Shown here: in pieces, positions 12,954 through 36,220 of the stretch
Layout of the letters: every line of letters starts with the position of its first letter
Position numbering within the stretch: the first letter of the stretch is position 1
Origin: Kiritimatiellia bacterium
GTDB lineage: Bacteria; Verrucomicrobiota; Kiritimatiellia; RFP12; UBA1067
Assembly: GCA_017403825.1 (NCBI GenBank)
Contig: JAFRDO010000077.1
Location: 64,921-128,920, forward strand
Length of the DNA: 64,000 nt
Direction of reading: 5' to 3'
Translations under genes and position numbers: made by a program
Notes under the pieces: generated by a model
What the model was told of the DNA's origin: nothing
Seen by the model: only the letters and a program-made list of their open reading frames with translations
The model's database searches: none

Positions 12954-12993
12954 GTTGAAGATTATACCAAAAATCGCGCGGGGTGTGGACGAC

Positions 12994-17207: not shown

Positions 17208-18278
17208 TCAGGCGCGCTCGAACGTGAACTTCTCCCACGGAATTGCCACCGGCTTCTTTTCCGTAAGGATCTCGTCCGTATGCATGAGCAGCGGGAATTC
17301 CGCGGCATCGAGCTTGCCGGCCGCACAGAGGACCTTGACGGCCCGCGCCACGCGCACGGCGACGACGAGCGACTCGAGCGTAACGCCCTTCAGCTCGGCC
17401 TTCGCCTCATCGATGTTCATGCCGCGTCCAAGCAGAATGCCGACGAGCCTCGTCCTGCCGCCGTACACCGTGACGTAGAGGTCGCCAGCGCCTACGCACA
17501 GGTTCTCGAGCGTACCCGCGCCCTGAAGGTCGAGGAGCTTCTTCATCTCCTTGACCGCCTGACCGAACACCGCGGCCTGCGAGTTGAAGTGCAGCTCCGA
17601 ATCGATGCCGAACGCCTTCTGATTGAGACCGATCGTAAGCGCAATGCCGAGGGCGTAGCCGTTCTTGAGCGCAACCGCGCTCTCTATGCCGGTAACGTCG
17701 GTGGAAAGCGAGATGTGGTAGTAGTCCGTCGCCATCGCAGCCTTCAGCATCCGCAGCGTCTCGATGTCCTTGCCGCAGAAAGCGACTTCCGTCTGGTCGT
17801 GCGCCACCAGCTCGTAGCTTGTGCAGGGGCCGCCGATCGCGCAGATCGTACGCGAGATCCCCTTCTCGGCAAGACGAGCCTCCCACACCGCAGGATAGGT
17901 GAGCAGCTTTCCGTCAGGCGTGTCCATCAGTCCCTTCGTGACGGAAAGGACCGGCAACGCCGGCGGCAGCTTGGGCAGCACCTCTTCGCCGAACCAGTCG
18001 ACGCCGAAGCTCGACACGCCGCCAATCACGAAATCAGCCCCGACGACCGCGTCCATCATCTCCTCGACCTGATAGAACTCGCATCCCTCCGGGAACGGCG
18101 GAACGCCGTTCGGAAAGTGCTTTGCGAACTTCGGGTGCCTGTTCGTCTTGCGGCACTCGTCAATGATCTCGCGGTCAAGGGGCGTGCCGACAAGCCGCAC
18201 CGTGTTTCCGTTCTCACGGGCCGGGAACGCCAATGCGCTCCCCATCATGCCCGAACCGATTATTACTATCGTAGCCAT
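17208..18278 (-). CDS. gpsA: NAD(P)H-dependent glycerol-3-phosphate dehydrogenase-like oxidoreductase.
   Basis: MATIVIIGSGMMGSALA forms a Rossmann motif. A KN-containing block 'ALKNGYALGIAL' resembles the GpsA C-terminal domain. The start was refined to 18278, which has a GGAAGGAA Shine-Dalgarno. The track ORF carried a 124-aa spurious extension. Confidence 0.6.
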   Translation of the reverse strand: MATIVIIGSGMMGSALAFPARENGNTVRLVGTPLDREIIDECRKTNRHPKFAKHFPNGVPPFPEGCEFYQVEEMMDAVVGADFVIGGVSSFGVDWFGEEVLPKLPPALPVLSVTKGLMDTPDGKLLTYPAVWEARLAEKGISRTICAIGGPCTSYELVAHDQTEVAFCGKDIETLRMLKAAMATDYYHISLSTDVTGIESAVALKNGYALGIALTIGLNQKAFGIDSELHFNSQAAVFGQAVKEMKKLLDLQGAGTLENLCVGAGDLYVTVYGGRTRLVGILLGRGMNIDEAKAELKGVTLESLVVAVRVARAVKVLCAAGKLDAAEFPLLMHTDEILTEKKPVAIPWEKFTFERA

Positions 18279-18328
18279 TTTGCTTTCCTTCCTAGTTGAT
18301 AGATTGCAGTTAGTTGACTCAAGCGTTT

Positions 18329-19249
18329 TCACTTGACGCGGCTGCGAAGAATCTCCACCGCCTTGTACAGCGCTTCCGGATAGTCGGTGCCGAAGGAATC
18401 GAACCCGAACTCCCAGAGCGCGAGATACGTCTCGGGACGGTTCGCCTCCTCCTGCCAAACGCACATGGACGCCTCGACGCCTGCTGCGTGCAGGCGCTCC
18501 ACGCACTTCTTCATCGTCTCCGGCTTCGGGCAGAACGTCGGCTTGCCTTCCGCATCGTAGCGCAGCTGGCAGTGGAGCTGCACATTGTCGATGTCCTTGA
18601 AGTTTTCCGCCGCCGCCTTCTCGAAGAGCGCCATCATGTGCCGTTCGCACTTATCCATCACCTCCGGATTGCCGAAGTCGATGCGTCCCCAGTTGCCGAG
18701 ATGCATCCAGTGAAGGGTCTGCCCTTCCGGCAGCGCGGCCTTGTACCGCTTGATCAGGCCGTAGTCGCACGTGATGAACCAGCACTGCTTCTCAAGTCCA
18801 TGCGCCTTCACCATCTCCGCGACCTTTTCTGGCGGCACGTCCTTCCAGTCGATATGCATCTTGCGGACGGGATTCTCCTCCATCGCGGTGAAAATCGTCT
18901 CCCAAAGCGGAGCGCGGCAGGTGGCGTACTGTGCGCCGCGATAGCTGCCCACATCCTCTTCGCGGAGTTCGGCCCACGTCCACTCGCTGATCTTCCTGCC
19001 CTTCAGTCCGTTGTCGTGGAACGCCACGATCTTGCCGTCCTTCGTGTAGCGGATGTCGCTTTCTGGCGTGTAACCCTTAGCCCACGTGTACAAGAGCGCC
19101 TCCATCGTGTTGTCGGGACGCCCCTTGCCGTCGCCACGGTGTATCAGCGAATGTTTCAGCGTCTCAAGCGCCTCCGGCGTTACGGGACGCTCTCCGAAAG
19201 CCGCCGTCGCACAGACTGCGGCAACAACCGTCATCATTGTCTTTTTCAT
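18329..19249 (-). CDS. Glycerophosphodiester phosphodiesterase (GDPD family), secreted.
   Basis: The signal peptide is MKKTMMTVVAAVCATAAFG. The GDPD motifs 'HRGD...PDNT' and 'FHD' are present. The start was refined to 19249, which has an AAAGGAG Shine-Dalgarno. Confidence 0.75.
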   Translation of the reverse strand: MKKTMMTVVAAVCATAAFGERPVTPEALETLKHSLIHRGDGKGRPDNTMEALLYTWAKGYTPESDIRYTKDGKIVAFHDNGLKGRKISEWTWAELREEDVGSYRGAQYATCRAPLWETIFTAMEENPVRKMHIDWKDVPPEKVAEMVKAHGLEKQCWFITCDYGLIKRYKAALPEGQTLHWMHLGNWGRIDFGNPEVMDKCERHMMALFEKAAAENFKDIDNVQLHCQLRYDAEGKPTFCPKPETMKKCVERLHAAGVEASMCVWQEEANRPETYLALWEFGFDSFGTDYPEALYKAVEILRSRVK

Positions 19250-19277
19250 TTCTGTTTCTCCTTTAAGAGGTGATTGC

Positions 19278-19351
19278 AAAACCACGGAACACACAGAATA
19301 CACGGAATCGAAATTGCATGTTTTCCGTGTTGTTCCGTGATTTCCGTGGTT
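19278..19351. repeat. Second copy of the CACGGAA-rich palindromic element (10-bp terminal inverted repeats aaccacggaa/ttccgtggtt). It lies in the intergenic 5' region of the GDPD gene.
   Basis: The inverted repeat is read directly from the sequence. Three CACGGAA units occur on each arm. It shares the 'aaaccacggaa...cacacggaatcg...ttccgtggtt' architecture with 5414..5497. Confidence 0.55.
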
Positions 19352-19391
19352 GAAAATATATACAAGGAAGCTTTGCCATTGGTTCCTTAAG

Positions 19392-20348
19392 TTAAGCGAA
19401 CTCAAACGTGATGCGTCGCCCGTCCCAGTCTCTCACGAACGCATCCCACGACGCGGGACGCTCTGCCGCCGTACGCTTTGCCGGAAAATAATGGTCGCGG
19501 GTGCGGCAATGCAACACCGCTCGTTCAGGCTCTGTGCGAATCAGCCCCCAGCCCACGTCATGGTCAAGCCCGAACGATGGGAAACCCATCATGCGTATTT
19601 CCCGAGCTTTATCGGAGTAGCCGTTGAAGAGGTAGTTCGTCATCCAGTGGTGATGATGCCCATGCAGATAGCCCACGACCTTCGGGGACTTTGCACAGAG
19701 CTTTCCGATCTTCAAGGCATCCCCCATGTGGTGCGAACAGACGAACGTCGGCTTCTCCAGCGCTGGCAGCGTCTTTTCCAGCCACTTCACCTGATCGTTG
19801 CCCAGCTCGAATCCAGTGCAAGCCGGATAGCTTCCGCGCGTCGTCGGCTCCTTCAGGGAATCAAGCAAGATGAAATCTGCATTCGGTGTCTCGACGACCG
19901 AGACGAACCGACCCGGCACCTTGGTCGTCTTGTCGTAACCGGGGAAGAACTTCAGGAACTCGGCGCGGATGTCGTGGTTGCCCATCGCGAGCGTCAGCTT
20001 GATGCCAGCGTCCGTAAGCGGTTTCAACGCCTCGGCGGCAACTTCATAGTCGCCCGTCTCGCCGAACGCCAACGATATGTCGCCAAGGCCGATGACGTTT
20101 GCCGGCGGGTTCTTTAACGAGAGAATCTCCTGAACAAGAGACTTCGTCATATCCGGCTGCCACGGATATTCGCGCCCCGTGCGATATTGCTGCTTCGACC
20201 ACGGCAACCCCGTGTGAATGTCGCTGATTACACCAATGGAGTACGGGTCAAGCTTTCCCAGTTCTCCCGCTGTCGCGCACCCTTCCATTGCACCCGCCGC
20301 CGCAACCGCAACGGCTCCGCGCATGAAATCTCTTCTTGACACTGTCAT
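19392..20348 (-). CDS. Tat-signal metallophosphoesterase (calcineurin-like), copy 1.
   Basis: The Tat motif MTVSRRDFMRG is present. The metallophosphoesterase motifs 'GDISL', 'GNHD' and 'GHHHH' are present. The start was refined to 20348. Confidence 0.7.
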   Translation of the reverse strand: MTVSRRDFMRGAVAVAAAGAMEGCATAGELGKLDPYSIGVISDIHTGLPWSKQQYRTGREYPWQPDMTKSLVQEILSLKNPPANVIGLGDISLAFGETGDYEVAAEALKPLTDAGIKLTLAMGNHDIRAEFLKFFPGYDKTTKVPGRFVSVVETPNADFILLDSLKEPTTRGSYPACTGFELGNDQVKWLEKTLPALEKPTFVCSHHMGDALKIGKLCAKSPKVVGYLHGHHHHWMTNYLFNGYSDKAREIRMMGFPSFGLDHDVGWGLIRTEPERAVLHCRTRDHYFPAKRTAAERPASWDAFVRDWDGRRITFEFA

Positions 20349-20374
20349 GCTAATGTCTCCGTAATCTGATCGAT

Positions 20375-21655
20375 TCAATCCTTCAAGCATCCTATAGGGC
20401 ACACGACAACTCCATCCTCTGGCCTTACATACGCACATTCGCCGACAGCAGTCAACACCATCATGAATGACGGCTTAGCCATTTTCGCCGTGTCAATGCG
20501 CGCGGCAAGATTCTTAAGCGTATCCGCCCCGCGCTCAATCAACGGTGTGCCGCCGAGTTTGATTTCGATGAGACCGTACCGTCCGTCACGCAGGGAAACA
20601 ACAGCATCGCACTCCAGTCCATTCGCATCATGGTAATGGCAGACGTCCCCGAAATGCGCATCGGCATAAACGCGGAGATCGCGAACCGCCAGCGTCTCAA
20701 ACATGAAGCCAAATGTCTTGAGGTCTTCCATCAGACCTTTCGGCCCAATCCGCAGTGCAGAGGTCGCAATGGACGGATCGGCAAAATATCGCGTATCGGA
20801 CGTCCTGACAGGAGTCTTGCAGCGAAGATTTGGACACCACGCCGGCATGTCCTCAACAGCGAAGATACTCTTGAGCGCATTCAGGTACGAATAGACGGTG
20901 TCAGCATCGAACCCACCGGTCTCGTTAGCCGCAAGATCTGCGTTTATGACCGACGCCGTTGCCTGTGAACCTTGGAGCCGCGCATACGAACGCATCAGGC
21001 GACGCGCACGGTCTTCGTTGCGGGCTACGCCATCAACCTTGGATATGTCACGCTTGACAACGGCATCCAAATAGTCGAACGCTGGGTCAAAAGCTTCCTC
21101 GCCTTTCATTTCGCATGCGATAGGCCACCCACCTCGGCATATTGCCGCCGCAATCTCCGGAAGCTGCGAAACTGCAGGATGTGCGCCGGTGCAGTCCACG
21201 CCGTCGAAAAGCGCACCGAGCGACACCTCGCCGGACGACTCCCCCGATTCATAAAGTGACATCGTCCGCATTTTCACCCAGGCGAAACGTCCCGTTCCGC
21301 TGTGCTTCATCTCATCTTCGTTAGCAGGGACGGCTGACCCGGTCAGAAGAAACATCCCACGATCATCACCGTGATCGACCCGATAGCGAATCGCATCCCA
21401 CAGGATAGGTGCAATCTGCCATTCGTCAATAAGTCGCGGCGATTCACCATCAAGTACCTCTGACGGACGAATTCGCGCCATCAGCATATTGTGGTCGCGT
21501 TTTTCCGGTTCATCCATGTAAATAACGCTCTTGGCCAACTGCTCGCAGGTGGTTGTTTTTCCACACCACTTTATGCCCTCAAGCAGAATGGCACCGGCAG
21601 ATTTGAACCGCCGTTTCAGCACCACATCCAATATGCGCTTTTTGTAGCTATTCAT
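20375..21655 (-). CDS. AAA+ ATPase of the DUF4143 family (ATP-binding protein). It is probably horizontally acquired.
   Basis: The Walker A motif 'GIKWCGKTTT' is present. It has the typical architecture of about 426 aa. By inspection its GC content (about 53-55%) is visibly lower than the flanks (about 62-65%). Confidence 0.7.
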   Translation of the reverse strand: MNSYKKRILDVVLKRRFKSAGAILLEGIKWCGKTTTCEQLAKSVIYMDEPEKRDHNMLMARIRPSEVLDGESPRLIDEWQIAPILWDAIRYRVDHGDDRGMFLLTGSAVPANEDEMKHSGTGRFAWVKMRTMSLYESGESSGEVSLGALFDGVDCTGAHPAVSQLPEIAAAICRGGWPIACEMKGEEAFDPAFDYLDAVVKRDISKVDGVARNEDRARRLMRSYARLQGSQATASVINADLAANETGGFDADTVYSYLNALKSIFAVEDMPAWCPNLRCKTPVRTSDTRYFADPSIATSALRIGPKGLMEDLKTFGFMFETLAVRDLRVYADAHFGDVCHYHDANGLECDAVVSLRDGRYGLIEIKLGGTPLIERGADTLKNLAARIDTAKMAKPSFMMVLTAVGECAYVRPEDGVVVCPIGCLKD

Positions 21656-21694
21656 GGTACGTATTATATCATATCGCTTCTATCAGCGCAATCA

Positions 21695-21777
21695 TTCGGT
21701 CAATTGAGGCGTTTTCGTTCGGTCAGTTGAGACCATTCCGTTCGGTTAGTTGAGACTTTTTTGTTCGGTTAATTGCT
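21695..21777. repeat. Four tandem direct repeats with a 23-24 bp period (TTCGGTYARTTGAG...). They could be iteron or operator-like sites.
   Basis: The units sit at 21695, 21718, 21741 and 21765. The first unit contains the palindrome TCAATTGA. The array lies upstream of the AAA-ATPase start, beside a TGaTATAAT element 7 nt before its ATG. Confidence 0.6.
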
Positions 21778-21794
21778 ATATCTCCGCGCCCCAA

Positions 21795-24700
21795 TTACTG
21801 AATGACGATCACCATGCCGAGCGGCTCCGGCAGCCACGTAAGGCGCACTGTCGCGGGGTCTGTCCCCTCCGTGTAGGTGTAGGTGCTGCCGTTATGGACA
21901 CGCCTGTTCGCCCATGCGCCGTTGACCAGCTCTTCTGTGGAATAGCGCACCACATCAACCACGGCCCCATTCCTGTCCACCGTCTTCGTAGCGGAAAATG
22001 TCCATTCGCCATCGACCTTGTACGCACCCGACTCGGACTGCACCGAACCTTCGCCACCAGCGACGACAAACACGTTCGTCGTCGCCAGCTCGCCGAAGTA
22101 CCGTGCCGAATCGACGTTGCGGTTGCGCACCATCTCGTCCGTCGTCAGGACGCGGTCATAGTAGCGGAACGTCTTCAGCGTGCCGGTGAAGTCCTGTGTG
22201 CTCGCCCCGCCGCCAATCCGGAGAGCGACAACATTCGTTGCCGTCGCCAACCTCGTAGCATCGGAATAATACCCTTGGGCCTGCGTACCGCTTGTCGGTG
22301 CTTCCGTACCTTCAAAGAACGTCGCCGTTTTACCATCTACGATTGCCGTGCCATACGAATAGACCTTGGAGTCGTGTACGAATCTCGGCCTCACGTTCGC
22401 CATGGCGTATGCTGCATCAGCAACATAGTAGAATGCGTAGTTGTAGTCCGTGCTCGTCCGAATGGCCATGGACGCCGCCTGCCAAGGGGAATTAAACATC
22501 AGATAGCCGCAGGTGGCGTTCACCTGATCCTCCACCTTTGCATCCACAAGGACCTGAAGTGAATAGCGCGGATTGAACGTGAATATCCCGGAGTACTGGA
22601 AGTATCCCCCAATGGTGTTGGACGTGTTCGTGAACGCATAGCCGCAGTCCGTCCAGCAACCCTCTCTTGTCGTCTTGTCTTGACGTGAGAGAGTATAGGC
22701 ACCGGGGTCGGCGAGGTTTGCCCATACCTTGGACCAGGCGCTCGTCGGGTTCGTTACGTCGTCCGATTCCACGCCAATGTTCTTGATGCCGTCATAGTGC
22801 AAGACAAGTCCGTTCGGAACGACATCCTCAAGTCCGAAGCCGGCGGCGGTGCGCAGGGCCTTCGTGCAGTTCCACCGCCACGTCAGACGCACCTTTGCGG
22901 GCGACGTGCCGACGGTGTACGTGTAGGATGCCGCACCGTCTGTAACGACCGGCGCGCTCCAGCCATGCGTGGCGGCATTCCACGTTTCAAGGGTATAGCC
23001 CGCGAACGTATATTCAAAGCCGCGTGAATCCGTCTGCACGGCCGCCGGCGCACTGAACGTGTAGGAACCTGAGATTTCATAGTTGCCGTTCGCCTCTGTT
23101 CCAGCGAAGAACGAATGCGAAGTGGCGACAACGACGTTCGTGACGGGCATGATGCCGTGGAAGCGGTAGTCGTCAACCACGCGGTTCTGCGCCAGTTCCT
23201 CGTTCGTGAGGACGCGATTGTAGAAGCGGAAGTTGTGGATCGTGCCGCGGAACTTCCGCAATGTATTGTCGGCAAGGCCACCTATGTAGAAGCCATTGCC
23301 GCTGGCCGTCTGGACTTGCGGCGTGGAGGTGAGCGCCATGCGCACGGCACCTGTCATATAGCGGTTTGCCGATGTCGTCGTGGGAATCGATGTGCCGATG
23401 AAGGCGGCTGTGTAGTCGTCGCCAAGGACAGTGGTCACGTAGCGCAACGGTGTCCCGTTAGGCTGGCATACGTCGGGCCGGGTGGAGGCATTGCCCGTTG
23501 CTTCGCTGTAGCCGTGGGTTGTCCAGTCGAACCATTCGTTTCCAGTGTCCCTGTTATCGCGCCGCAGGGAGATTGATCCACCCTTGTCGAATGTTCCGGT
23601 GTTATACCAGAGGTAGGGCTCGTTGACGCGGTTGTTGCTGGAATTGAGGTAATCTTCCTGGTCGAGGCCGTTGGCTTCAACGGCGATTTGGACCGTCTGA
23701 TTGGAAGGCAGCGTGAAAGCCGTGCCCGGCGTGAACCAGGACTGCTGCTCGAAACGGTAGCCGTCCGTGCGCCATTCGCCGGGCTTCGTGACGCCGCTCT
23801 TGGCATGGAAGGTCATGTCCCATCCGCCTGCCGGGGCGAGGTTCTTCCATGCGGTCGTGTCGCTGCTGTGCGGCTGGTCGGCACCGACGTTGCGGATACC
23901 GTCGTATTGGAGGAGAAGTCCGTCCTGCACATAGTCGGCGGTCGTGTAGCGCGTCACGATGCCATCGCCCCCCGTCCACTGCCATGTGATGCGAATGCGG
24001 TCGGAGGCGGTGACGGCGACGGATGTGCCACTCTTCGTCTGAGCCGTGCCCCATGTGCCAGTGGTATCGTCCCATGTCTCCAATGTATAGCCCGTGCAGG
24101 TGTAGGAGCGTCCATCAACCGTCTTCGAGGCAGGAGCGGAAAAGGCATAGCCGCTGGCATCGACAGCATACGCACCTGCCTTCTCGTTGCCCGAAACGCT
24201 TGCCGTCGACGAAGCAATCACCGCGTTTGTCGTAGGAATCGAGGAAACGAGTTTTCCAAAGAAGCGCACATCATCCACCGCGCGGTTCCAGACTCGCTCT
24301 TCTTCAGAAAGGGCACGATTATAATGGCGGTAGGACTTGATTGTGCCGAAAAGCGGCTGTCCGGCACTCGTTGCGGTGGAACCAGGATTGCCGCCTATAC
24401 CCCAAGCCGATGTTGTCATCGACTCAAGCGTCTTGCCGGAAGCGAGGTCTTTCTTGCCACCAAGCGCAGTCCCGGCAAAAAACCATGCGTTCGTAACATC
24501 GATAAGTGCAGTAACATAGCTGAATGACGTGCCGGAAATGTCCGCAGCAGATGCAAAATAATTATAGTGGTTGAGGCGAATGCGATTCCCAGCGGAGTTG
24601 GATGCGCCTCGGACACCAATGGAGTATGTTTTCCAATAAGTACTATCACTGTCCCATGGGAAGTATACGTAGCCGATGCCCGAACCGTGGTCGGCTGTCT

Positions 24701-25076
24701 TCGCGTCAATAAGCGCCTGAACGGTGTAGGAAGTTCCGAACGTGAACGCAGTGGTGCTGGCATAGGTCGTCTTGCCTTTGAAGTCAAAGCCGTCCTTGCC
24801 CCATTCACCCAAATTCAACTTGGACTGTCGCAGATCGTAAGTCGCACCACCAGATCCGAGGTTCTTCCATGTTGTCGTTGTCGTGGAATGGTCGGCATTC
24901 AGGCCCATGTTTCGGATGCCGTCGTAGTGGAGCACAAGCCCATCCTGCACATACGAATCGGCGTCGTAGTTGCCCGCAGTCCAGTATTTGAGACCTGCAT
25001 CAGCGGCGGCTGGAATCAGCGTCGCCATCAACGCCGAAAGCAGTGCACTTCTCTTGAACATTTCCTGGATTTTCAT
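21795..25076 (-). CDS. Family-B giant secreted protein. It has three LamG-like (ConA-like lectin) plus Ig-like modules and the C-terminal tail LPEPLGMVIVIQ.
   Basis: The signal peptide ends ...AAADA|G. Three roughly 350-aa modules each begin 'YVQDGL.LHYDGI.N.G'. Each contains the LamG-type motif 'G(T)(I/L)K(S/T/N)(Y/F)R.Y(N/D)R.L(S/T)..E'. Each ends 'VR(I/L)TW(Q/K)(W/Y)'. An AAAGGAAAA Shine-Dalgarno is present. Confidence 0.7.
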   Translation of the reverse strand: MKIQEMFKRSALLSALMATLIPAAADAGLKYWTAGNYDADSYVQDGLVLHYDGIRNMGLNADHSTTTTTWKNLGSGGATYDLRQSKLNLGEWGKDGFDFKGKTTYASTTAFTFGTSYTVQALIDAKTADHGSGIGYVYFPWDSDSTYWKTYSIGVRGASNSAGNRIRLNHYNYFASAADISGTSFSYVTALIDVTNAWFFAGTALGGKKDLASGKTLESMTTSAWGIGGNPGSTATSAGQPLFGTIKSYRHYNRALSEEERVWNRAVDDVRFFGKLVSSIPTTNAVIASSTASVSGNEKAGAYAVDASGYAFSAPASKTVDGRSYTCTGYTLETWDDTTGTWGTAQTKSGTSVAVTASDRIRITWQWTGGDGIVTRYTTADYVQDGLLLQYDGIRNVGADQPHSSDTTAWKNLAPAGGWDMTFHAKSGVTKPGEWRTDGYRFEQQSWFTPGTAFTLPSNQTVQIAVEANGLDQEDYLNSSNNRVNEPYLWYNTGTFDKGGSISLRRDNRDTGNEWFDWTTHGYSEATGNASTRPDVCQPNGTPLRYVTTVLGDDYTAAFIGTSIPTTTSANRYMTGAVRMALTSTPQVQTASGNGFYIGGLADNTLRKFRGTIHNFRFYNRVLTNEELAQNRVVDDYRFHGIMPVTNVVVATSHSFFAGTEANGNYEISGSYTFSAPAAVQTDSRGFEYTFAGYTLETWNAATHGWSAPVVTDGAASYTYTVGTSPAKVRLTWRWNCTKALRTAAGFGLEDVVPNGLVLHYDGIKNIGVESDDVTNPTSAWSKVWANLADPGAYTLSRQDKTTREGCWTDCGYAFTNTSNTIGGYFQYSGIFTFNPRYSLQVLVDAKVEDQVNATCGYLMFNSPWQAASMAIRTSTDYNYAFYYVADAAYAMANVRPRFVHDSKVYSYGTAIVDGKTATFFEGTEAPTSGTQAQGYYSDATRLATATNVVALRIGGGASTQDFTGTLKTFRYYDRVLTTDEMVRNRNVDSARYFGELATTNVFVVAGGEGSVQSESGAYKVDGEWTFSATKTVDRNGAVVDVVRYSTEELVNGAWANRRVHNGSTYTYTEGTDPATVRLTWLPEPLGMVIVIQ

Positions 25077-25106
25077 TGTCGTTTTCCTTTCTGTCGGTTC
25101 GTGAAA

Positions 25107-26063
25107 TCAAATCCGCAGCGTCACCTTCTGGCCGTTCTGCTCGCGCACGATGTCGTCGCGCCCGGGTTGTCCGTCGCCCGGACCGCCCGTGAAGAAGAAG
25201 TCGTTCTGGTGGTTCGTGATCTCCACGCGGTCCGGGAACGTCCTCATCGTCGCAAAGCCGATGTCGCCCCAATGTCCCGTGGAGGGCAGCCCCACATACG
25301 GCTTCACATGCTGCGGGTTCCACCCATTGTGCATGGCGTCGCGCACCCACTTGTGCCAGTGTCCGTGGATGTGCCCCTTGCATGCGGCGGACTCCAGCAG
25401 CAGCCCCGCGATCTTCACCTTTTCCTCGTTCGGCTTGTGGTGCGCACAGGTCAAGACAGGCTTCGTCGCCGCCTTCAGCGTCTCGCGCAGCCACTCGCGC
25501 TGGGCATTGTCCATTTCGCCAGGCTTGGACGGCTTCTTCTTCTCCACCTCAAGCGCGTTTAGCGTATCGAGCATCAGCAGATCGACGTACGGCAACTCCA
25601 CCTTCGAGACGATGCGCCCCGGAACTGGCGACGTCTTGGCGTACTCCGGCCACTGCACCAGAAAGTTTCCGCGGCGGTCGTGGTTGCCCATGCCGAGCGT
25701 CAGCCTGATGCCTGCGTCAGTTATCGGCTTAAAAAGCGTCGCCGCAAGCGCATAGTCTTCTCTCTGCCCCCAATGATAGGCGATGTCGCCGAAGCAGACG
25801 ACGTTCGCAGGAAGCGGATCGAGCGCAAGAATCGCCTCGACCGTCTTGCGGAAGCAGACCTCCTCGTAGCAGTGCGTCGGCACTTCGCTCTTAAGCCCGT
25901 TGACGTGCAGATCAGAAACGAGCGCGACAAGGCTTGGATCCCGCCGGGACGGCGTCATAGCCGACAGTCCGTCCCCGTCCTTCGCGAAAGACGGCAACGC
26001 CGCCGAAGCGATAAGCCCCGAAGCCGCCCCAATAAACTCTCTGCGTGTGATATTCGATTCCAT
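25107..26063 (-). CDS. Tat-signal metallophosphoesterase, copy 2. It is cotranscribed with the family-B giant protein across a 30-bp gap.
   Basis: The Tat motif MESNITRREFIGAASG is present. The metallophosphoesterase motifs 'GDIAY', 'GNHD' and 'GHWH' are present. The start was refined to 26063. Confidence 0.7.
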   Translation of the reverse strand: MESNITRREFIGAASGLIASAALPSFAKDGDGLSAMTPSRRDPSLVALVSDLHVNGLKSEVPTHCYEEVCFRKTVEAILALDPLPANVVCFGDIAYHWGQREDYALAATLFKPITDAGIRLTLGMGNHDRRGNFLVQWPEYAKTSPVPGRIVSKVELPYVDLLMLDTLNALEVEKKKPSKPGEMDNAQREWLRETLKAATKPVLTCAHHKPNEEKVKIAGLLLESAACKGHIHGHWHKWVRDAMHNGWNPQHVKPYVGLPSTGHWGDIGFATMRTFPDRVEITNHQNDFFFTGGPGDGQPGRDDIVREQNGQKVTLRI

Positions 26064-26092: not shown

Positions 26093-26200
26093 AGCCGCCG
26101 CCAAGCGACAATTCACCATTCAGAAAGAAATATACCAAATGCCGCCGCCACCCGCAACCAGAAAAACTTGTAAAATTGGAAATAAAAATTACAGAATCGG
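26093..26200 (-). promoter_or_regulatory. Conserved promoter-plus-leader module: -35 TTGCGG, a 17-nt spacer, extended -10 TGGTATATT, and a leader hairpin. A near-identical module sits at 36113..36218.
   Basis: Alignment of the two loci by eye shows conservation of 'GGTTGCGG n6 CGGCGGCATTTGGTAT(A/C)ATTTC' and of the leader 'TGGT(G/A)A(A/G)TTGTC(G/A)CTTGG(C/T)G(G/A)CGG'. Confidence 0.5.
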
Positions 26201-26212
26201 ATCAGTGCGATT

Positions 26213-26230
26213 TATGGTATAATCCTCCGC
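26213..26230 (+). promoter_or_regulatory. Extended -10 TGGTATAAT lying 9 nt upstream of the AraC/XylR-type regulator ATG. This implies a leaderless or near-leaderless transcript.
   Basis: 'atttatggtataatcctccgcATG' has no Shine-Dalgarno. The sequence CCTCC before the ATG is an anti-SD. Confidence 0.4.
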
Positions 26231-27394
26231 ATGAAACGCCGCCATGTACTCATTCTCGTCACGCCCGCATACCAGCCAAGGCTTGCCGGCATTGCGCGCT
26301 ACGCACGTCAGCATGGCTGGCAACTGACAATTCTCGACCGAATCGCACGCTATCCGCGCGGCTGGAACGGCGACGGCGTACTCGCGACGCTCCGCGAACT
26401 TCCCGAAATCGTCGCATTCGTCAAATCGCTTCGCAGACGCCACATTCCCGTCGTCGATCTCACATTCAACCATCCGGAACTTCATCTCCCGCGCGTGAGC
26501 GGCGACCACTTCCTGATGGGAAAGCTCGCAAGGCGGCATTTCGAGGAGCGCAACTTCCGTCATTTTGCATGGTTCTCGACCAACTGGCTCAACATCCACC
26601 GCCTCCGCTACAACGGCTTCTCGCAATCCACCACCCCCAACGCCAAACTCTCGACTCTAAGCCCCCAACCTTTTAAATGGATCTTCTCGGAAGAGGTTCC
26701 ACCGGAACGCATCGACGATTTCGCATGGTTTGACCGCTGGCTTGTAAAGAAGCTCGCTTCAGCCCCCAAGCCGCTCGCCCTTCTCGCCTACGACGACGCA
26801 GACGCCGCCCGTGCGCTTGGCGCCTGCCTTGCCGCCGGCCTCTCCGTGCCCGAAGATGTCGCCATACTCGGCATCGGCGGCGATCGCCTCATCTGCGAGA
26901 ACCAACCCGTTCCGATCTCCTCCGTCGAACACGACCAGGGACGTACTGGCTACGAAGGCGCCGAGCTTCTCGACCGTCTCATGGATGGAATGAAGCCGCC
27001 GACAAAGCCAATTTTGATTCCGCCGCGCGGCATCACTGTGCGCGCATCCTCAGACGTCATCGTCGCAGCAAGCCCCATCGTCCGCAAGGCGCTTGAATAC
27101 ATCCATTCCAATCTCGAAAAGCAATTCGGTCTGGCGCAGATCGCAGCCGACACGGACGTTTCGCGCGCAACCCTCACGCGACTGTTCAAACAGGAGACGG
27201 GGCGATCCATTGGTGCCGAGATCTTGCGCCAACGACTCGAACTGGCCAAACGGCTGCTCTCGAACAACAATCTGTCAATCGCGGATATTGCGTACCGCAC
27301 AGGCTTCTGCAACCCAGCCTACTTCACCAACACTTTTCGCAATTCCACCGGCCTCACCCCAAAGGCGTGGCGAGGCGGCCACAAAAGCTTATAG
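26231..27394 (+). CDS. AraC/XylR-family transcriptional regulator. An N-terminal periplasmic-binding-protein-like sugar-sensing domain is joined to a C-terminal AraC HTH.
   Basis: The C-terminus 'LAQIAADTDVSRATLTRLFKQETG...IADIAYRTGFCNPAYFTNTFRNSTGLTPKAWR' is a canonical AraC HTH. The N-terminal approximately 270 aa resemble an XylR-type ligand domain. Confidence 0.85.
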   Translation: MKRRHVLILVTPAYQPRLAGIARYARQHGWQLTILDRIARYPRGWNGDGVLATLRELPEIVAFVKSLRRRHIPVVDLTFNHPELHLPRVSGDHFLMGKLARRHFEERNFRHFAWFSTNWLNIHRLRYNGFSQSTTPNAKLSTLSPQPFKWIFSEEVPPERIDDFAWFDRWLVKKLASAPKPLALLAYDDADAARALGACLAAGLSVPEDVAILGIGGDRLICENQPVPISSVEHDQGRTGYEGAELLDRLMDGMKPPTKPILIPPRGITVRASSDVIVAASPIVRKALEYIHSNLEKQFGLAQIAADTDVSRATLTRLFKQETGRSIGAEILRQRLELAKRLLSNNNLSIADIAYRTGFCNPAYFTNTFRNSTGLTPKAWRGGHKSL

Positions 27395-27398
27395 ACGT

Positions 27399-30300
27399 CT
27401 ATTGGACGATAATCATCATGCCGAGCGGCTCGGGCAGCCACGTGAGGCGCACCGTCGCGGGGTCTGTCCCCTCCGTGTATGTGTAGGTGTTGCCGTTATA
27501 GACCTGACGGTTCGCCCATGCGCCGTTGACCAGCGTTTCGATGGAATAGCGTACCACGGGAACCGTCTCGCCGCTCTTGTTGACCGTGGTCGCAGCCGTG
27601 AACGTCCATTCGCTCTCGACTTTGTACGCACCCGTCTCTGTCTGCGTTCCGCCGCCCGCGACGACAAACACGTTCGTCGTCACCAGCACACCAAAATAGC
27701 GGGCCTGGTCAACCTCGCGGTTGTGCGCCACTTCCGCATCGGTGAGGACACGACCGTAGAAACGGTAGCTCTTGAGCGTTCCCTTGAAAAGTTCGTCTGT
27801 CCTCGGATAGTGTCCGCCGATGCTGTAGCCATTGACAAACATAACATTTGGCGGCGTCTTGGTCGTTGAAACGGCGTGGCCATTCGCCCATCCCGACGCC
27901 GTCCACGGAGCCGTTGTCCCAGCAAACATCACGCCGTTCGTCCTGTCGAGCATAGCCGTCGCATAGGAGAAATGCTCAGTTCCGGATGCCGCGCAGATTG
28001 ACGGGCGACTTCCGGTCGCACCCTGGACTACCAGATAAAACGTGTTGACTCTGCCGTTCCAGTCCGAGCTGCGCATGCCGAACGCGCAATTGTCCCAGCT
28101 CTGTGCAGCGTAGCCGCACATGACGTAGCCGATTCCGTTCTGGTCGGCAGGCGTCGCGTCAACGAGCGTCTGTATGGAATACCGCTCGGGAACTGCGAAT
28201 GACGTCCATTCATGGAAGACAGCGTCCTTGGCGAAGATGAAACCGTTGTCTGTCCACGCTCCCCTCGACGCATCCTGATTCCACGATTCCACGCCGCCGC
28301 CGTCGCCGAACTCGAAGCCCCCACAGTGCCATTGGTGCTGTAGCGCGTCAGGTCATAGACGCCAGGATTGGCGCAATTCACCCATTTCGCGGCGGTTGCA
28401 TCATGATCGGCATTCGGCCCAGCGTTGCAGATGCCGTCGTAGTTCACGATGAGACCGTCCTGAACGTAGTCATCTATGCCGTAATCGGCGGCGGTGCGCA
28501 GACCGTGCGTCGTCCGCCACTTCCATGTGAGGCGGACAAGTCCTGCGGCGGTCGTGTAGGCGTAGGACGCCCCCTCGTGCAAAACTGCCGCACTCCACGC
28601 ATTGCCGTTCCACGTCTCAATAGTATAGCCGGCACAAGCGTAATCTATGCCCTTGACAGTCACGTTCTCTGGCGCCGTGAAGGTGTAGGAGCCTGAGACT
28701 TCCCACGGTCCTTCAGACTCGTTGCCGTGAAGGAACGGGCGGGTCGTGTCCGAGGCCACCACCACGTTCGTAACGGACGGACGATGGAAGAAGCGCCATT
28801 CATCGACCCGGCGGTTCTGCTCCAGTTCAGCGGTCGTCAGAACCTTGTTCGGATAATAGCGAAGATTCTTGACCTTGCCTACGATAGAACCGTCCTCGGC
28901 GCCAAATCCTCCAAGCCGGAAATCATTACAGGTGTAGGCCGCAAGAGCCCCATCGAACTGGCGGAATCCGGTCGTGTAGTCACCGCTCGTCGGCGCAATT
29001 GTCCCGTCAAACGTGGCCATCGTACTGTTGCCGCCGTTAAGAATGGTCGTTGCGTAATCGTAGCGGCGCGACGTATGTGAGAAAATCGGTATATTGTTCT
29101 TATCCAGATTCTGTGCGTTTGAATAGCAGTAGTTGTCATCTCTGGACAACGCCAACGCGAATTTGGCGTACGCACCGGAATAGACATGCGCCCACCTTGA
29201 CAGCTGTCCGCCATCTGCGCTGGCATCTATAAGCGTCTGAACAGTGAAGGTGTCAGGAACCGAGTAGGCATTTCCGGTGAGCTGGAAAATGCTCTTGCCC
29301 CTGAACGCATAACCGTCCACCTCCCAATGTCCCTGGTCGCCGACCAGCCACATAAATGGCACTAGGTTGCGGGCGGCACCATCTGAGCCGAGGTTTGCCC
29401 AAACCGAGGCAGTCTGGCAGTGGTCCACATTGGCGCCGGCGTTGCGGATGCCGTCATAGTGCCAGACCAACCCATCCTGAACGTAGTCCTCCACGTCGTA
29501 AACGACAAGATACCCTTCGCCCTCGGGACGCGCATACTGCCACGTAAGGCGGACTTTCCCCGACGTGTTGGAGAGTGTGCAGGATGTCTCGCCGTCATGC
29601 GCGGCAGGTTCGCCCCATGCCGAGCCATTCCACGTTTCCAGCGTGTAGCCGCCAAGGACATAGCGCCGTCCCTTGACCGTGCGGCTGGCGGGTGCGGTGA
29701 AGGTGTAGCCCTCCGCATCAAGCGCGAAATGGTCGTCCGCGACGCCACCGATGGTGCAGGAGACAACGACGTTCGTCACGGGAATCGCGGCGCGACGCCC
29801 AAAGAAACGCGCTTCATCCACCACGCGGTTCCACGCCACCTCCTCATCCGAGAGGACACGCGTATAAAAGCGGAAGTTCTTGATGGTTCCCTTAAAAAGC
29901 TCATCCGCCCTCGGATAGTGTCCGCCGAGCGAAATGCCCCAGTCGCGCACATGGGAATCCTTGCTCAAATCTGAGCGATAGCTACCGTCCGTCGCACCCC
30001 ACGGCGCCGTTGTGCCGGGAAACATGACACCCTCCCCGTTGCTTTTGTGCAGAGCCGTCGCATACGAGAACGGGACGGTCGCGGACGATGCGGCAAAGTA
30101 CGGACGTTGCGAAGATACGAGATAGAAGGAATTGTTTGGAGTGCCGCCGCCGGCCGACGTTCGTACCCCCATGCAGCAGGCCGCCCAGTTGCCAGGATGG
30201 ACACTCCCGGAAAGGCCGGTGTCGTTATAGTCGCACATAATGTAGCCGATGCCGTTCTGATCACCAGACGTTGCATTGACAAGCGTCTGAATCGAGTAGT

Positions 30301-30697
30301 CCTTGGGGACGGTGAAGGATGCCATTTCATGGAAGATCGAATTCTTGTCGAACATGAAGCCGGCTGGCTCCCACGCGCCCTTTTCGGTGGAGTTTGTCCA
30401 AGCCGAATTGACATAGGAATAGCGCACCATGTCATAAGTCGCGCCGCCACTGCCAAGGTTCTTCCATGTCGTGGTGTTCGGGTCGTGGGCGGCGTTCGGC
30501 CCCGCGTTGCGGATGCCATCGTAATTGAGTACAAGCCCGTCCTGCACGTAGTCGCCAACGTCAAAGGACTTGTACGCGGGGTTGTCCCAATACTTTATGC
30601 CCGCGTCAGCGGAGGTTGCGATCAGCGCCGCCAAACACGCTGGAAACAGCCGGTTGGCTATTTTTGATGTTTCGTGCATCTTCATTGTCGTTCTCAT
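27399..30697 (-). pseudogene. Family-B giant secreted protein paralog, split by a frameshift near 28318..28322. The track shows it as two overlapping ORFs, 27399..28292 and 28028..30697.
   Basis: In the upstream ORF, module 3 breaks off at '...YDLTRYSTNGTVG'. It resumes in the other frame as 'GFEFGDGGGVESWNQDASRGAW...'. The last 90 aa of the long ORF are Arg/Ser-rich out-of-frame junk. The C-terminal 100 aa are about 80% identical to the 21795 gene and end LPEPLGMMIIVQ. Confidence 0.6.
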
Positions 30698-32487: not shown

Positions 32488-33924
32488 TTATTGTCTCCAC
32501 TTGATCATCTTGTTCAAAAGCGTCAACTGCCCGTTTACGAGCGCATCGGCCGTGCCGGGACCGTAACTGGAGGTTTTCGCTTCGTAGCCGGGATAGCGGT
32601 ACGCCTCGTCCGTCGGGAAATATCCAACGGTACCGTTCGTCAGGCACATCGCCATCGTCATCCTGTAAGGCGACTTCGCCTTGATGCGACGCCCGATATC
32701 GCAGAACGGTTCGCCCGGGAAGCCCACGAACGCAAGGCTCATGCCGATTGACAGCGCGCAGATTCTTACCGGGAAAGCATCCGGGGATGACTCCATCCTG
32801 ACTTTGCGGTAGGCATCCGCAACGGCCGTCACATAATCCATGCCGGTGAACGGTATCTCGCCGCTCCGCCCGGCCTCGTGCGCCGCGATGAATCTTCTGG
32901 CCTCTTCCAACTCATCGGGCGACGCCTTGTTGGACGGCACCTGGACAAGTTCGGAGGCGTAGTGCAGACAACCCGCCGGGACAGGATCGCAGCGTCCCCA
33001 GACCGTCATCGCGGCTGCAGCCACCATCGTTCCCATGTTCAGTGCGTTCGCGTAGGTGTCCTTGACTGTTTCGCCCGGACGCGGATCGACGGCAATATGG
33101 TTGAGGTCGCCCTGCGTACCGTTCACCACAACGCATTTCACGCCGACCGCCATGCGCTCCATCTCGCGCCGCGCCGCGCCCACCCAATCGGCCGAGAACT
33201 TGCTCCCTCCAATAACGTCAGGATGGTTCTGGAAATTGATGACGTCGATCTCCGGCTTGCCGCCCCCGCGGACAAATCGCGCCAGCTGCAGCGTCTCGTC
33301 GGGCATTCCGACCGGACGGACAATATCCTTGTTCCCGACGCCGGGGTTCGTGCGCAACTTCCCGTCCTTCATCAGATAGGTTCGGACGAACGCATGGCGC
33401 TTGAGTTCCGCCGTTCCGACTGCAATCGTCGCCGGCGCCAGATCGGCTACGGCCGCGCTGGCTGCATCGCCAATTCGTTTCACAAGCAGGTTCACGTAGT
33501 TCGTTATCGCAGGCATGTCCTCGGGCTTCATGCCAAGGCCAGGACACGTCTTGCGCAACGTCTCGCCGCCCGTGTGAGTATGGGAGGAATGCACAATTAC
33601 GCCCGCCGCCGCAATGCCGGTGCGCCGTTCGACCTCGGCCTGCACAAGAGCAATAACATCGTTCTGCACATGCACGTTGTCAACCGCAACCAGCACCGCC
33701 TTGACATGGTTGTCGTCAAAGGCGATGACGCTTGCCTCCAGCGGATCGCGCACCCCTTCCGCAATCCGCCGCTTGTAGTATCCGGGTATGAAGATCCCGA
33801 CATCAGGCGTGATGTCCACGCGCGCAAAACCGGCGCGGAAGACCGTCGGGGATCCGTCGTCTGCAACTGCGCACAGACTGGCGCAGGCACAACACACAGC
33901 AAACAGGAAAACGAAACGCCGCAT
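32488..33924 (-). CDS. Neutral/alkaline ceramidase-like secreted hydrolase.
   Basis: The signal peptide is MRRFVFLFAVCCACASLCA. The N-terminal 'GFARVDITPDVGIFIPGY' and 'HSSHTHTGG' blocks resemble the Zn-binding region of the ceramidase family. Confidence 0.45.
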   Translation of the reverse strand: MRRFVFLFAVCCACASLCAVADDGSPTVFRAGFARVDITPDVGIFIPGYYKRRIAEGVRDPLEASVIAFDDNHVKAVLVAVDNVHVQNDVIALVQAEVERRTGIAAAGVIVHSSHTHTGGETLRKTCPGLGMKPEDMPAITNYVNLLVKRIGDAASAAVADLAPATIAVGTAELKRHAFVRTYLMKDGKLRTNPGVGNKDIVRPVGMPDETLQLARFVRGGGKPEIDVINFQNHPDVIGGSKFSADWVGAARREMERMAVGVKCVVVNGTQGDLNHIAVDPRPGETVKDTYANALNMGTMVAAAAMTVWGRCDPVPAGCLHYASELVQVPSNKASPDELEEARRFIAAHEAGRSGEIPFTGMDYVTAVADAYRKVRMESSPDAFPVRICALSIGMSLAFVGFPGEPFCDIGRRIKAKSPYRMTMAMCLTNGTVGYFPTDEAYRYPGYEAKTSSYGPGTADALVNGQLTLLNKMIKWRQ

Positions 33925-33927
33925 ATC

Positions 33928-36087
33928 CTATTTCACCTTCAGCATCAATCCGCGCTCTGCCGTCACATAGCCGTTGGGGAAAAGGCGGAGTCTCTTTCCT
34001 TCGGACGTGCGGAGCAGGCTTTGCTGCCTTTCCGTGAGCGCGCTTTCGGAGTCTCCGAACAGGAGCGCCCCTTCGCGGAAGCACTCGATTACGACGTTGG
34101 TCTTCCAGTCCGCATCCTGGCTGCTGGAATCGGCGAACGAAAGCATCGCCCCTTCGCCCAACCGGATCTTGCCGCCCCTGGCATTCACCTTCAACACGGC
34201 GGGGATCGCGTTCACCGTGTCGTTCGAGACGGCAAACGTGCCGCCTCCGAGCGTCAAGGCGCCGGTGCCCGTCCACCCGTTGCTGATGCCAAGGATAAAT
34301 GTGCCGCAGCTCACGACAAGACCGTTATTTAGGTTGAACTCGCCCATCATGAGCGCTGTGCCGATGCCGAGTTTGTTTATGCCTGACTTGATGAAAACGC
34401 CAGTGTATGGAGTGATATCACCCCGAAACACGAAGTCCGGCCTGTCATCGCCCGTCACATCGGCAACATCAAGCGACATCACGCCAAGGTTACCGTTGCC
34501 ATACCCTAAAACTTGCATCGGCGCATCCATTGACGAGGGGGACGTGCCTCGCACCTTCCAGGTCGCAGCAGAGGAATTGCCGGTCCAGAACGTTGCGCCC
34601 TTGCTCGCAAGGCTCGCCCCGTCCTCGAACAGCATTCTGTTCTGGTAGCTGTAGGTCACACCGCTAGCATGCTGCGATTCGAACGTGCCGCCGCAAAGTT
34701 CTATCTTCTGTTCGTTGGATGTCGTCCAATTGTTGTTGTGCAGCACTTTCCCGCCCCTGTACACGCGGATTGTCGCCGAATCGTTCTGCCACGCCACTTT
34801 GTTCGGGGAACCTTTGCTGCCCAACCCTGTCAAATCCAGCACGCCACCATCGCGTACCTCAACGATGCCGTTCGTCGGAAACGCCACATTGCTCAACACA
34901 TTGCACGTTATGGTCTTGCCCGCCGCACGGTCACCCTTGATGATGATACGCCCGTACCTGTCCATATCCGACTCGTTGACATCCCTTAACGTCCTGCCGA
35001 CCTGCGCGGATATGTTGTTGCGAAAAGTGTTTGCCAGCGTCACCGTATAGCTACCCGGCCTTGTCGCGGCAAGCACAAGCGTACCGAAACTGTCACCCGC
35101 CATCGTGCCGCCGATGCTGAGATTCGCGTCTCCCGCGATGAACTGTCCGGAAACGAAAGAGGACGGCGGCGCAGCCGTAGCACCGAGGATATCCACCGAC
35201 GCGCCTTTCGCGACGTTCAGCGCACCGCCAAGGCCGGAGAGGTCGCCGCGCAGGCTCACGCGCGGCGCACCTGTCCACATCGCCGACAGGTTGCAGACGT
35301 TGTAGCCGCCAGAATACAGTACTTCGGTATTGACGTTGGTATCGGGATTGGACTGCCACAGCCGGTAGAGGTTTTCCATGTCCTCCCCTTCCAGCTTGGC
35401 CCAGGGATAGTAGCCCGCGCGGATACGGCCTTGAATATCCGTTCCCGACTGCCTCAGTTCAAGCATTGAGGTTTTCGTAATGTCCTTTTTATCACCCGTC
35501 TTGTACCATATCTGCATCTGAAGCGTCATCATCTTCACGCCATCGCCGGTCGTAAAACGCCGCGCAAAATAAGGATAAAGAATCTGCGGATTGCCAATTC
35601 CGGAAAAGGCCCTGTTGTTGGCATAGAGAACGGTGATGTCATCCAGATCACAGCCGGGGAACATGGTCTTGAACGCCGCGTTGGCGCCATAATTCAGCAC
35701 ACCTCCGTTATAGACGACGACGGCGGCGTTCTGGGCGTTCGTGACGGTGAGACCGTTCACGCCAGTAAGCGTGTTCTCGATCACGAAGTTTCCCGGACCG
35801 GAAAGCGTCATGACGGCATCGGCGGCAAGGTCGATGGTGTCGCCGCCGAGCGTGATGGTGTCGCCGGCGGCGACGGTCGCAAAAAGCGTCTGAACCTTGT
35901 CGTTTGCATCGTAGGCGAACGCCAGTTCGCCGTTAGCACCAAGCGATCTGGGGTTGGCTCCCGTCGTCCATGTCAGCGACTGGTCCGCCGCCAACGACAC
36001 CGCACAAGACAGAACGACCGCGAGAAGAGAAACTAATGGTTTGCCCCGCCGTTCACAACTTGCGTTAGGTTTACACGGCATTTCCAT
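33928..36087 (-). CDS. Large secreted beta-helix/autotransporter-associated-repeat-like protein, possibly a lipoprotein.
   Basis: The start was refined to MEM/MPCKPNAS...LLAVVLSC. The protein has Gly/Asn/Thr-rich beta-strand repeats (GGTFAVSNDTVN..., GALTLGGGTF...). The track ORF carried a 61-aa spurious extension. Confidence 0.5.
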   Translation of the reverse strand: MEMPCKPNASCERRGKPLVSLLAVVLSCAVSLAADQSLTWTTGANPRSLGANGELAFAYDANDKVQTLFATVAAGDTITLGGDTIDLAADAVMTLSGPGNFVIENTLTGVNGLTVTNAQNAAVVVYNGGVLNYGANAAFKTMFPGCDLDDITVLYANNRAFSGIGNPQILYPYFARRFTTGDGVKMMTLQMQIWYKTGDKKDITKTSMLELRQSGTDIQGRIRAGYYPWAKLEGEDMENLYRLWQSNPDTNVNTEVLYSGGYNVCNLSAMWTGAPRVSLRGDLSGLGGALNVAKGASVDILGATAAPPSSFVSGQFIAGDANLSIGGTMAGDSFGTLVLAATRPGSYTVTLANTFRNNISAQVGRTLRDVNESDMDRYGRIIIKGDRAAGKTITCNVLSNVAFPTNGIVEVRDGGVLDLTGLGSKGSPNKVAWQNDSATIRVYRGGKVLHNNNWTTSNEQKIELCGGTFESQHASGVTYSYQNRMLFEDGASLASKGATFWTGNSSAATWKVRGTSPSSMDAPMQVLGYGNGNLGVMSLDVADVTGDDRPDFVFRGDITPYTGVFIKSGINKLGIGTALMMGEFNLNNGLVVSCGTFILGISNGWTGTGALTLGGGTFAVSNDTVNAIPAVLKVNARGGKIRLGEGAMLSFADSSSQDADWKTNVVIECFREGALLFGDSESALTERQQSLLRTSEGKRLRLFPNGYVTAERGLMLKVK

Positions 36088-36112
36088 CCTCCATTCTTTG
36101 CTTTCACATTGG

Positions 36113-36218
36113 CCCACCGTCACCAAGTGACAACTTACCATATGAAATGATACCAAATGCCGCCGTAGGCCGCAACCGGAAAGACTTGGAATCTTAAAAA
36201 CTGTAATCACACTTTCGG
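36113..36218 (-). promoter_or_regulatory. Second copy of the conserved promoter-plus-leader module: -35 TTGCGG, extended -10 TGGTATCAT, and the leader hairpin GUCAC-uug-GUGAC.
   Basis: See 26093..26200. The hairpin arms show compensatory change between the copies: GUCGC/GCGGC in one and GUCAC/GUGAC in the other. Confidence 0.5.
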
Positions 36219-36220
36219 CT

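Follow-up and report, generated by a model that had tools for sequence, protein, structure and literature searches.

At araC-araBAD, AraC is served by the direct-repeat half-sites I1 and I2, which follow a periodicity of about 21 bp and of which the proximal one touches the -35 element. The same intergenic region also drives araC in the opposite direction, and the araC promoter is overlapped by the operator. The XylR sites of E. coli are about 37 bp long, comprise two direct repeats and lie beside the -35 element of promoters with a poor consensus, where XylR activates transcription by recruiting RNA polymerase (PMC3561964). The module described here, which occurs twice in the window (the whole stretch of 64,000 nucleotides that was analyzed), is conceptually a standard arrangement of the AraC/XylR type; its leader hairpin aside, it is real but ordinary.

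Like E. coli XylR (IA/IF, divergent xylAB/xylFGH), the candidate regulator encoded beside the first copy combines a LacI/GalR-type sensor with an AraC double HTH. Its putative operator likewise extends over about 37–40 bp as two boxes near the -35 of a poor sigma-70 promoter, with a direct-repeat match between the boxes (p about 0.03 among nine related sequences), and the regulator is a candidate for serving more than one promoter, again in a divergent arrangement. Unlike E. coli XylR, however, the window regulator is remote in sequence and not an orthologue; the module boxes ACGATaaTGTAAT and ATTACAAGTCTTT are unrelated to the E. coli consensus gaAa-a-a-AAT; and the candidate targets comprise phosphodiesterases, glycerol-3-phosphate genes and large secreted proteins rather than xylose genes. 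Furthermore, the divergent partner here is the gene of the regulator, with a leaderless-looking mRNA, and the host belongs to the uncultured Kiritimatiellae of the rumen. With araC-araBAD the module shares putative half-sites about 21 bp apart, a proximal half-site at the -35, a divergent regulator gene and an overlap of operator and promoter, whereas the sensor is LacI-type instead of cupin-type, no distal O2-type looping site was identified, and no CRP-like site is evident at the module. A short GC hairpin within the first ~45 nt of the predicted transcript, present in several members, also recalls 5'-UTR cis-regulatory RNAs; unlike riboswitches, leaders and 5' stabilizing stem-loops, it comes with no conserved structure, covariation or Rfam match, and two members lack the leader block.

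Kiritimatiellae abound in rumen and gut, and most of them are uncultured; to our knowledge, almost nothing is known of their gene regulation. For this lineage, the module supplies a concrete operator motif along with a widespread candidate regulator. It would define a regulon resembling extracellular phosphodiester and glycerol-phosphate catabolism, can be used for annotating regulon members in MAGs and documents a promoter grammar of the lineage, i.e., a TGGTATAAT extended -10 and probably leaderless regulator mRNAs. We consider it probable that both copies in the window are activator-dependent sigma-70 promoters carrying the operator of a XylR-type regulon. To judge from sequence, the module as a whole is most likely a regulon marker in rumen Kiritimatiellae, representing the promoter and operator through which a XylR-type regulator acts on its targets.

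Two copies of a promoter module

Copy A (winA; 26093–26203, minus strand), which comprises the operator boxes, the promoter and the start of the leader, lies upstream of a Tat-signal metallophosphoesterase operon. Copy B (winB; 36113–36221, minus strand) begins directly past the stop codon of an SSF symporter gene and lies upstream of a gene for a secreted protein of 716/718 aa. The first-pass annotation had pointed to two closely matching minus-strand regions at these places, and the likeness holds, with 77 of 102 aligned columns identical in a global alignment (26093–26200 against 36113–36218). A blastn comparison of copy A with the whole window returned copy B (E = 2e-10) and no other match of similar quality, the similarity being confined to about 80 nt, and the nhmmer family profile detects copy A at E = 1.4e-18 and copy B at E = 7.5e-18. 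Within the window, the pattern GGTTGCGG-N4-CGGCGGCATTTGGTAT matches these two copies only, with 0 matches expected in shuffles, and the leader block ATGGTRARTTGTCRCTTGGYGRCGG likewise matches precisely the two sites. The search pattern suggested earlier, with a gap of N6, yields 0 matches, the true gap being N4.

The genes downstream are unrelated, as had been claimed (best E = 1.8 in a protein comparison), and those upstream differ as well, with a divergent regulator gene at copy A and a co-directional SSF symporter gene at copy B. Because of these two facts, together with the short extent of the match (~80 nt), a segmental duplication that includes coding sequence is rejected; the flanks were examined for the coding similarity that the first-pass annotation had associated with a recent duplication of this kind, and none is present.

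The core promoter geometry was described correctly at the outset, comprising TTGCGG, a 17-nt spacer and then TGG followed by TATATT in copy A or TATCAT in copy B. In copy A, the weak -35 TTGCGG (26152–26157, minus strand) is followed, 17 nt on, by the extended -10 TGG-TATATT (26129–26137, minus strand). The corresponding region of copy B (36147–36175, minus strand) contains TTGCGG at 36170–36175, the 17-nt spacer and TGG-TATCAT at 36147–36155. Neither promoter is called by a simple sigma-70 consensus scan, since the -35 matches TTGACA at only three of six positions. The sequence features of the extended -10 (TGn and TAnnnT, 17 ± 1 nt past the -35 position) occur in all nine members of the family described below, copies A and B included, while the -35 is not kept in two of them, L037 and L038, which keep the spacing between the box and the -10.

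The sequence TGGTATAAT appears to serve the source genome generally as its strong promoter with an extended -10; it is found at other intergenic sites of the window at 1433(-), 1469(+), 12969(-), 17205(-), 26215(+) and 30732(-), usually after T-rich bases. Since the motif recurs across the window, the agreement between copies A and B at the -10 and the preceding TTTGG is partly generic. At the 12969(-) site, the motif is followed by 7 nt and then an ATG.

Other assignments for this region were considered and set aside. A sigma-54 promoter was rejected by eye, as copy A has TGGC but the wrong -12 spacing and sequence, and copy B is without the -24 GG. An ECF-sigma promoter is unlikely given that the -10 is of the same TGGTATAAT type as that of other intergenic promoters, including the regulator's own. 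A terminator flagged by a scan in the spacer (GTTGC...GCGGC followed by ATTTGG) was also rejected, with its 5 bp, 8-nt loop, poor T-tract and a frequency at the level of shuffles.

A family of nine and its putative two-part operator

The earlier proposal to look for more copies was pursued in related contigs. Contigs encoding orthologues of the phosphoesterase or the regulator, together with one metagenome pattern scan, yielded seven further copies in six loci of related Kiritimatiellae metagenome contigs. The family thus comprises nine members, i.e., copies A and B, L017a, L017b, L026, L031, L034, L037 and L038. The metagenome scan, which used a four-copy consensus, gave six matches, of which just one, L026, is genuinely related. 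Species-representative genomes (GTDB), scanned for TTGCGG-N8-GGCATTTGGTAT, gave 13 matches in unrelated phyla, none of them element-like, against about 17 chance matches estimated for the 18 specified bases; either the source species or this exact core is thus missing from these representatives.

When the family is aligned with the -10 as anchor, all nine members display one layout, consisting of a distal box, a proximal box, the 17-nt spacer and a TAnnAT hexamer. The consensus of the distal box is about GATACGATaaTGTAAT / aTaCGATnaTgTaAT, at ~-78 to -63, and that of the proximal box about ATTACAAGTCTTT / taTTaCAAGTnTTT, at ~-50 to -38 and two bases from the -35 position. The family core can accordingly be written as GATACGATaaTGTAAT, with ATTACAAGTCTTT at an offset of ~21–22 bp and set against a weak -35, and then the extended -10 ATTTGGTAtnAT. 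Across the nine members, the per-column information is highest in the two boxes and in ATTTGgTA, which is invariant or nearly so within the -10-proximal part of the spacer (gg.ggATTTGg), and it falls to background level past the -10. The family-wide conserved signal is therefore the upstream DNA at ~-78 to -38 and not the leader. The first-pass annotation had emphasized a conserved spacer and leader; the coordinates of its region do include the boxes, which it left undiscussed, whereas spacer and leader lack family-wide conservation.

In copy A, the distal box GATCCGATTCTGTAAT (26188–26203, minus strand) was located by the anchored alignment and the column conservation of the nine members, and it overlaps the -35 region of the promoter that serves the divergent regulator gene. 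The proximal box ATTTTACAAGTTTTT (26162–26176, minus strand) abuts the -35 and holds the most conserved columns of the family alignment. In copy B, the same alignment places a degenerate distal box AGCCGAAAGTGTGATTACAG at 36201–36220 and a proximal box GATTCCAAGTCTTT at 36180–36193, both on the minus strand. Compared with one another as direct repeats at an offset of 21–22 bp, the distal and proximal boxes reach a summed match of 65, as against 59.5 ± 2.6 in shuffles (p about 0.03, for nine related sequences only). An inverted-repeat operator of the form TGTAAT-N13/14-ATTACA was rejected, as it occurs at chance level (p = 0.43).

In ~290 kb of Kiritimatiellae sequence, no further copies of the module were found and none outside the recurring gene set described below; the module is therefore specific and not a global site. 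No module was detectable at the orthologous phosphoesterase loci L018–L021 and L028–L030, at the regulator orthologue loci L035 and L036 (64–67% identity) or at L039, which carries an orthologue of the gene driven by copy B. Given these loci, the operator is either fast-evolving or not universal.

Several repeats and neighbors of the module-less loci were recorded in passing. Three tandem 10-bp repeats, CGATTGCAGT CGATTGCAAT CGATTGCAGT, lie at ~5390–5425 of L028, upstream of a GDPD-LamG-phosphoesterase operon; they resemble the half-site of the family (ACGAT..TGTAAT / ATTGCAAG) and may be a diverged operator. At 9712–9871 of L036, a 22-nt tandem array of ~4–7 units, containing the palindrome CCAATGGGCATTGG, fills the gap between the 67%-identical regulator orthologue and a GH106 gene, a position at which one would look for the module. 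L035 encodes the most divergent of the regulator orthologues considered (64% identity); the intergenic region next to it holds a tRNA-Asn gene (9847–9921), and the locus has no module.

The XylR-like regulator and the driven genes

The gene divergent from copy A (26231–27394, plus strand) encodes a protein of 387 aa with Pfam domains PF13377 (residues 102–274) and PF12833 plus PF00165 (304–381), i.e., a LacI/periplasmic-binding-type sensor (Peripla_BP_3) joined to a C-terminal AraC double HTH (HTH_AraC), which is the architecture of XylR. Its best relative in the PDB is E. coli XylR (4FE4/4FE7, E = 4e-31, residues 10–382). The earlier observation that copy A is divergently adjacent to the promoter of an AraC/XylR regulator is thus borne out, the two lying back to back. 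Six of the nine copies (A, L017b, L031, L034, L037 and L038) are back to back with a single orthologue group of this regulator, whose members in L017 and L031 share 76–77% identity, and those in L037 and L038 73%, with the window protein; the module of L034 abuts an internally deleted remnant. The remaining three (B, L017a and L026) are without an adjacent regulator. L034 also encodes a 31%-identical paralogue, the intergenic region of which is unrelated to the module. The family to which the regulator belongs is widespread and numbers over 100 clusters (64–82% identity).

The promoter of the regulator has an extended -10 of the TGGTATAAT type (26215–26223, plus strand); the ATG comes after exactly 7 nt, and the start region (26215–26233) lacks a Shine-Dalgarno sequence. 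The same TAnnAT-N7-ATG order recurs at L017 (~12977–13000), L031 (~1767–1790) and L036, L037 and L038 (~10001 side), and the regulator mRNA is probably leaderless, judging from this spacing. Autoregulation is suggested since the distal box of copy A overlaps the -35 region of this promoter.

Five different first genes lie downstream of the module, all drawn from one recurring set of Tat-phosphoesterases, GDPD, GpsA-like dehydrogenase, MFS, ENPP-type phosphodiesterase, Lactamase_B_2 and LamG-like giants. A phosphoesterase gene is the first at copy A, L017a, L026 and L034; a LamG-like protein of ~1100 aa, 60% identical to the 1093-aa product of the second gene in the copy A operon, is encoded first at L017b; function-unassigned proteins of ~725–735 aa are encoded first at L031 and L037; a GpsA-like dehydrogenase gene, followed by one for an MFS transporter, stands at L038; and the gene for the 718-aa protein stands at copy B. 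The order of genes around the modules is rearranged between genomes.

At copy A, the first gene (25107–26063, minus strand) encodes a calcineurin-like phosphoesterase of 318 aa with a Tat signal (TRREFI). The operon (17208–26063, minus strand) encodes this Tat-phosphoesterase, the 1093-aa LamG-like protein, an AAA_14/DUF4143 ATPase, a second Tat-phosphoesterase, GDPD and a GpsA-like glycerol-3-phosphate dehydrogenase. The first gene at copy B (33928–36081, minus strand) encodes a putative secreted protein or lipoprotein of 716/718 aa with no Pfam or NCBIfam match, and it is followed by a neutral-ceramidase-like gene of 478 aa (32488–33924) and then a 560-aa gene. Its start (36079–36092, minus strand) is ambiguous, with in-frame ATGs at 36087 and 36081 and another in-frame ATG 5 nt past the -10; the ATG at 36081, six nt past GGAGG (36088–36092), is probably the one used. 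Orthologues of this gene occur in Kiritimatiellae only. The window proteins match contigs from ruminant gut metagenomes, and their nearest named homologues come from Kiritimatiellae MAGs. From its domain content, the gene set looks like one for the extracellular breakdown of glycerophosphodiester-type polymers or lipids.

In the arrangement that we propose, a dimer of the XylR-like regulator (26231–27394) would bind the two-part site against the weak -35 and, once bound to its ligand, would recruit RNA polymerase. The regulator would thereby switch on both the adjoining operon at copy A and a second, unlinked operon at copy B, and it would also control its own expression via the distal box of copy A that overlaps its promoter. 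The controlled genes would form a pathway breaking down a glycerophosphodiester-type substrate. From the co-occurrence of module and regulator, we infer the link between the two; binding by the regulator, activation rather than repression, the ligand and the substrate are likewise predictions.

A few features of the neighborhood deserve mention. The AAA_14/DUF4143 ATPase gene (20375–21655, minus strand) sits in the middle of the copy A operon, and a gene of the same type lies beside the regulator remnant in L034 (8442–9608); a selfish or mobile gene may have inserted here. The large LamG-like paralogues at 21795–25076 and 28028–30697 (minus strand; also 27399–28076) are 37% identical and account for families of DNA repeats picked up by a repeat finder. 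The 889-aa LamG-like paralogue lacks a module and is served by a TGGTATAAT promoter of its own at 30732. When window positions 36221–39906 (minus strand) are compared with 7417–9960 of L017 (plus strand), the module lies downstream of a Lactamase_B-AllG pair in both, the window adds the SSF symporter, and the gene after the module differs between the two loci, which suggests that breakpoints of rearrangement lie at or near the module.

Alternative readings and the leader hairpin

The likeness of copies A and B to each other is distributed unevenly along the module. Over the operator region, copy A is 80% identical to L017a and 79% to L038, compared with only 63% to copy B, and its likeness to the copies of other genomes is conservation between genomes. 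Over the core promoter, the two window copies agree at 81%, while either reaches at most 68–71% with other genomes, and their leaders agree at 20 of 25 bases (80%). The two leaders of the L017 genome similarly have TTGTGTCCGC in common. The stress initially placed on the identity of the spacer must therefore be revised, as this likeness is largely specific to the source genome and not family-wide. The sharing of the G-rich spacer and ~25 nt of leader is also what an activator-operator model leaves unexplained; the extra identity is specific to the source genome and probably derives from duplication or gene conversion. On these grounds, the resemblance of the two copies might be regarded as mainly historical, the result of a recent copy or gene conversion of a promoter cassette by which copy B borrowed its promoter without meaningful co-regulation. 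The reshuffled gene order near the modules would fit such an event, as would the orthologues of the copy B gene that lack a module of their own, being operon-internal in L017 (within the operon driven by L017b) and in L039 (with no module). However, copy B retains both boxes in register (1 mismatch in 20 for the proximal and 11/16 for the distal box), and its orthologue in L017 is already part of a module-driven operon, so that gaining its own copy preserves the same regulation. Moreover, a duplication accounts for the origin of copy B and is compatible with a working regulated promoter. We thus regard a purely historical resemblance as unlikely. A related proposal starts from the module's 3' half, comprising the G-rich spacer, the start region and the first ~25–30 nt of leader, which is alike within a genome and different between genomes, and holds that it reflects either a second, genome-specific layer of control, i.e., a co-evolving repressor, sRNA or RNA-binding protein recognizing the AAWGGTGRATTGT-plus-hairpin region, or a small promoter cassette that passes between regulon members, by copying or conversion, while the gene order is reshuffled. 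This proposal as formulated is given little credence, and for the within-genome likeness of the promoter-proximal half, a genome-specific second factor is less likely than duplication or gene conversion.

The boxes could also be the operator of some other transcription factor encoded elsewhere, e.g., a repressor or global regulator, with the adjacency of the XylR-like gene reflecting synteny in a catabolic island. Three of the nine copies do lack an adjoining regulator, and TGTAAT...ATTACA can be read as an inverted repeat, as for many dimeric repressors. Nevertheless, the inverted repeat stands at chance and the direct repeat fits better; an orthologue of one and the same regulator adjoins six of the nine copies in spite of their rearranged targets; no copies turned up beyond the gene set in the ~290 kb; and class II activators, including those of the AraC/XylR family, typically sit directly against a weak -35 (PMC3561964). 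An unrelated factor is consequently judged quite improbable, and the XylR-type operator is retained as the preferred reading.

A further reading assigns the regulon to the leader itself, with a conserved RNA that contains a small hairpin with compensatory changes and is sensed by a ligand, protein or sRNA taking the place of the DNA operator. The hairpin is GUCGC-uug-GCGGC in copy A (26097–26109, minus strand; -4.4 kcal/mol) and GUCAC-uug-GUGAC, a perfect 5-3-5 palindrome, in copy B (36119–36131, minus strand; -3.5 kcal/mol). The agreement of the two leaders, the fact that the three hairpin differences all keep the pairing, the presence of some palindrome or hairpin at ~+15 to +45 in six of nine leaders and a loose AAWGGTGRATTGT block, at variable distance, in four or five of them speak in its favor. 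Yet the supposedly compensatory changes amount to one G-C to A-U and one U-G to U-A, and three random transitions keep all five pairs in 25–38% of cases. The hairpin is absent from the MFE fold of both leaders, that of copy A using other pairs, and its in-context probability is 0.03 in copy A and 0.42 in copy B. RNAalifold finds 0 consensus pairs across seven leaders. In five aligned leaders, 52% of the helix cells are paired compared with 51% in shuffled alignments, and 68% when the helix is slid by -3; the covariation score is 0.12 compared with 0.16 when shuffled. The folding z-scores of eight leaders (-0.09, -1.68, -0.57, -0.52, -1.94, +1.37, +0.40 and -1.93; mean about -0.6) indicate that the leader fold is not more stable than its composition predicts. 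L031 and L034 have short leaders without the block or the hairpin, while L017a, L017b, L026, L037 and L038 have either different palindromes, which vary in sequence, loop size and position, or none. A search of Rfam 15 gave nothing at gathering thresholds in the whole window and nothing at E ≤ 1 in either region. The covarying hairpin of the first-pass annotation thus loses its support once more copies are aligned, and a leader RNA as the basis of the regulon is highly improbable. That annotation had left open whether the shared element was a cis-regulatory RNA or an operator marking a regulon; the operator part is supported, as a DNA module with seven further copies, a regulator orthologue beside six of the nine and one gene set, and the RNA element is not.

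A leaderless uORF or leader peptide starting at ATGGTG was likewise rejected: L017a, L026 and L038 contain no ATG there, and all codon differences between copies A and B are non-synonymous. The ATGGTG frame extends over 15 codons in copy A and reads in frame into the main gene in copy B and L037.
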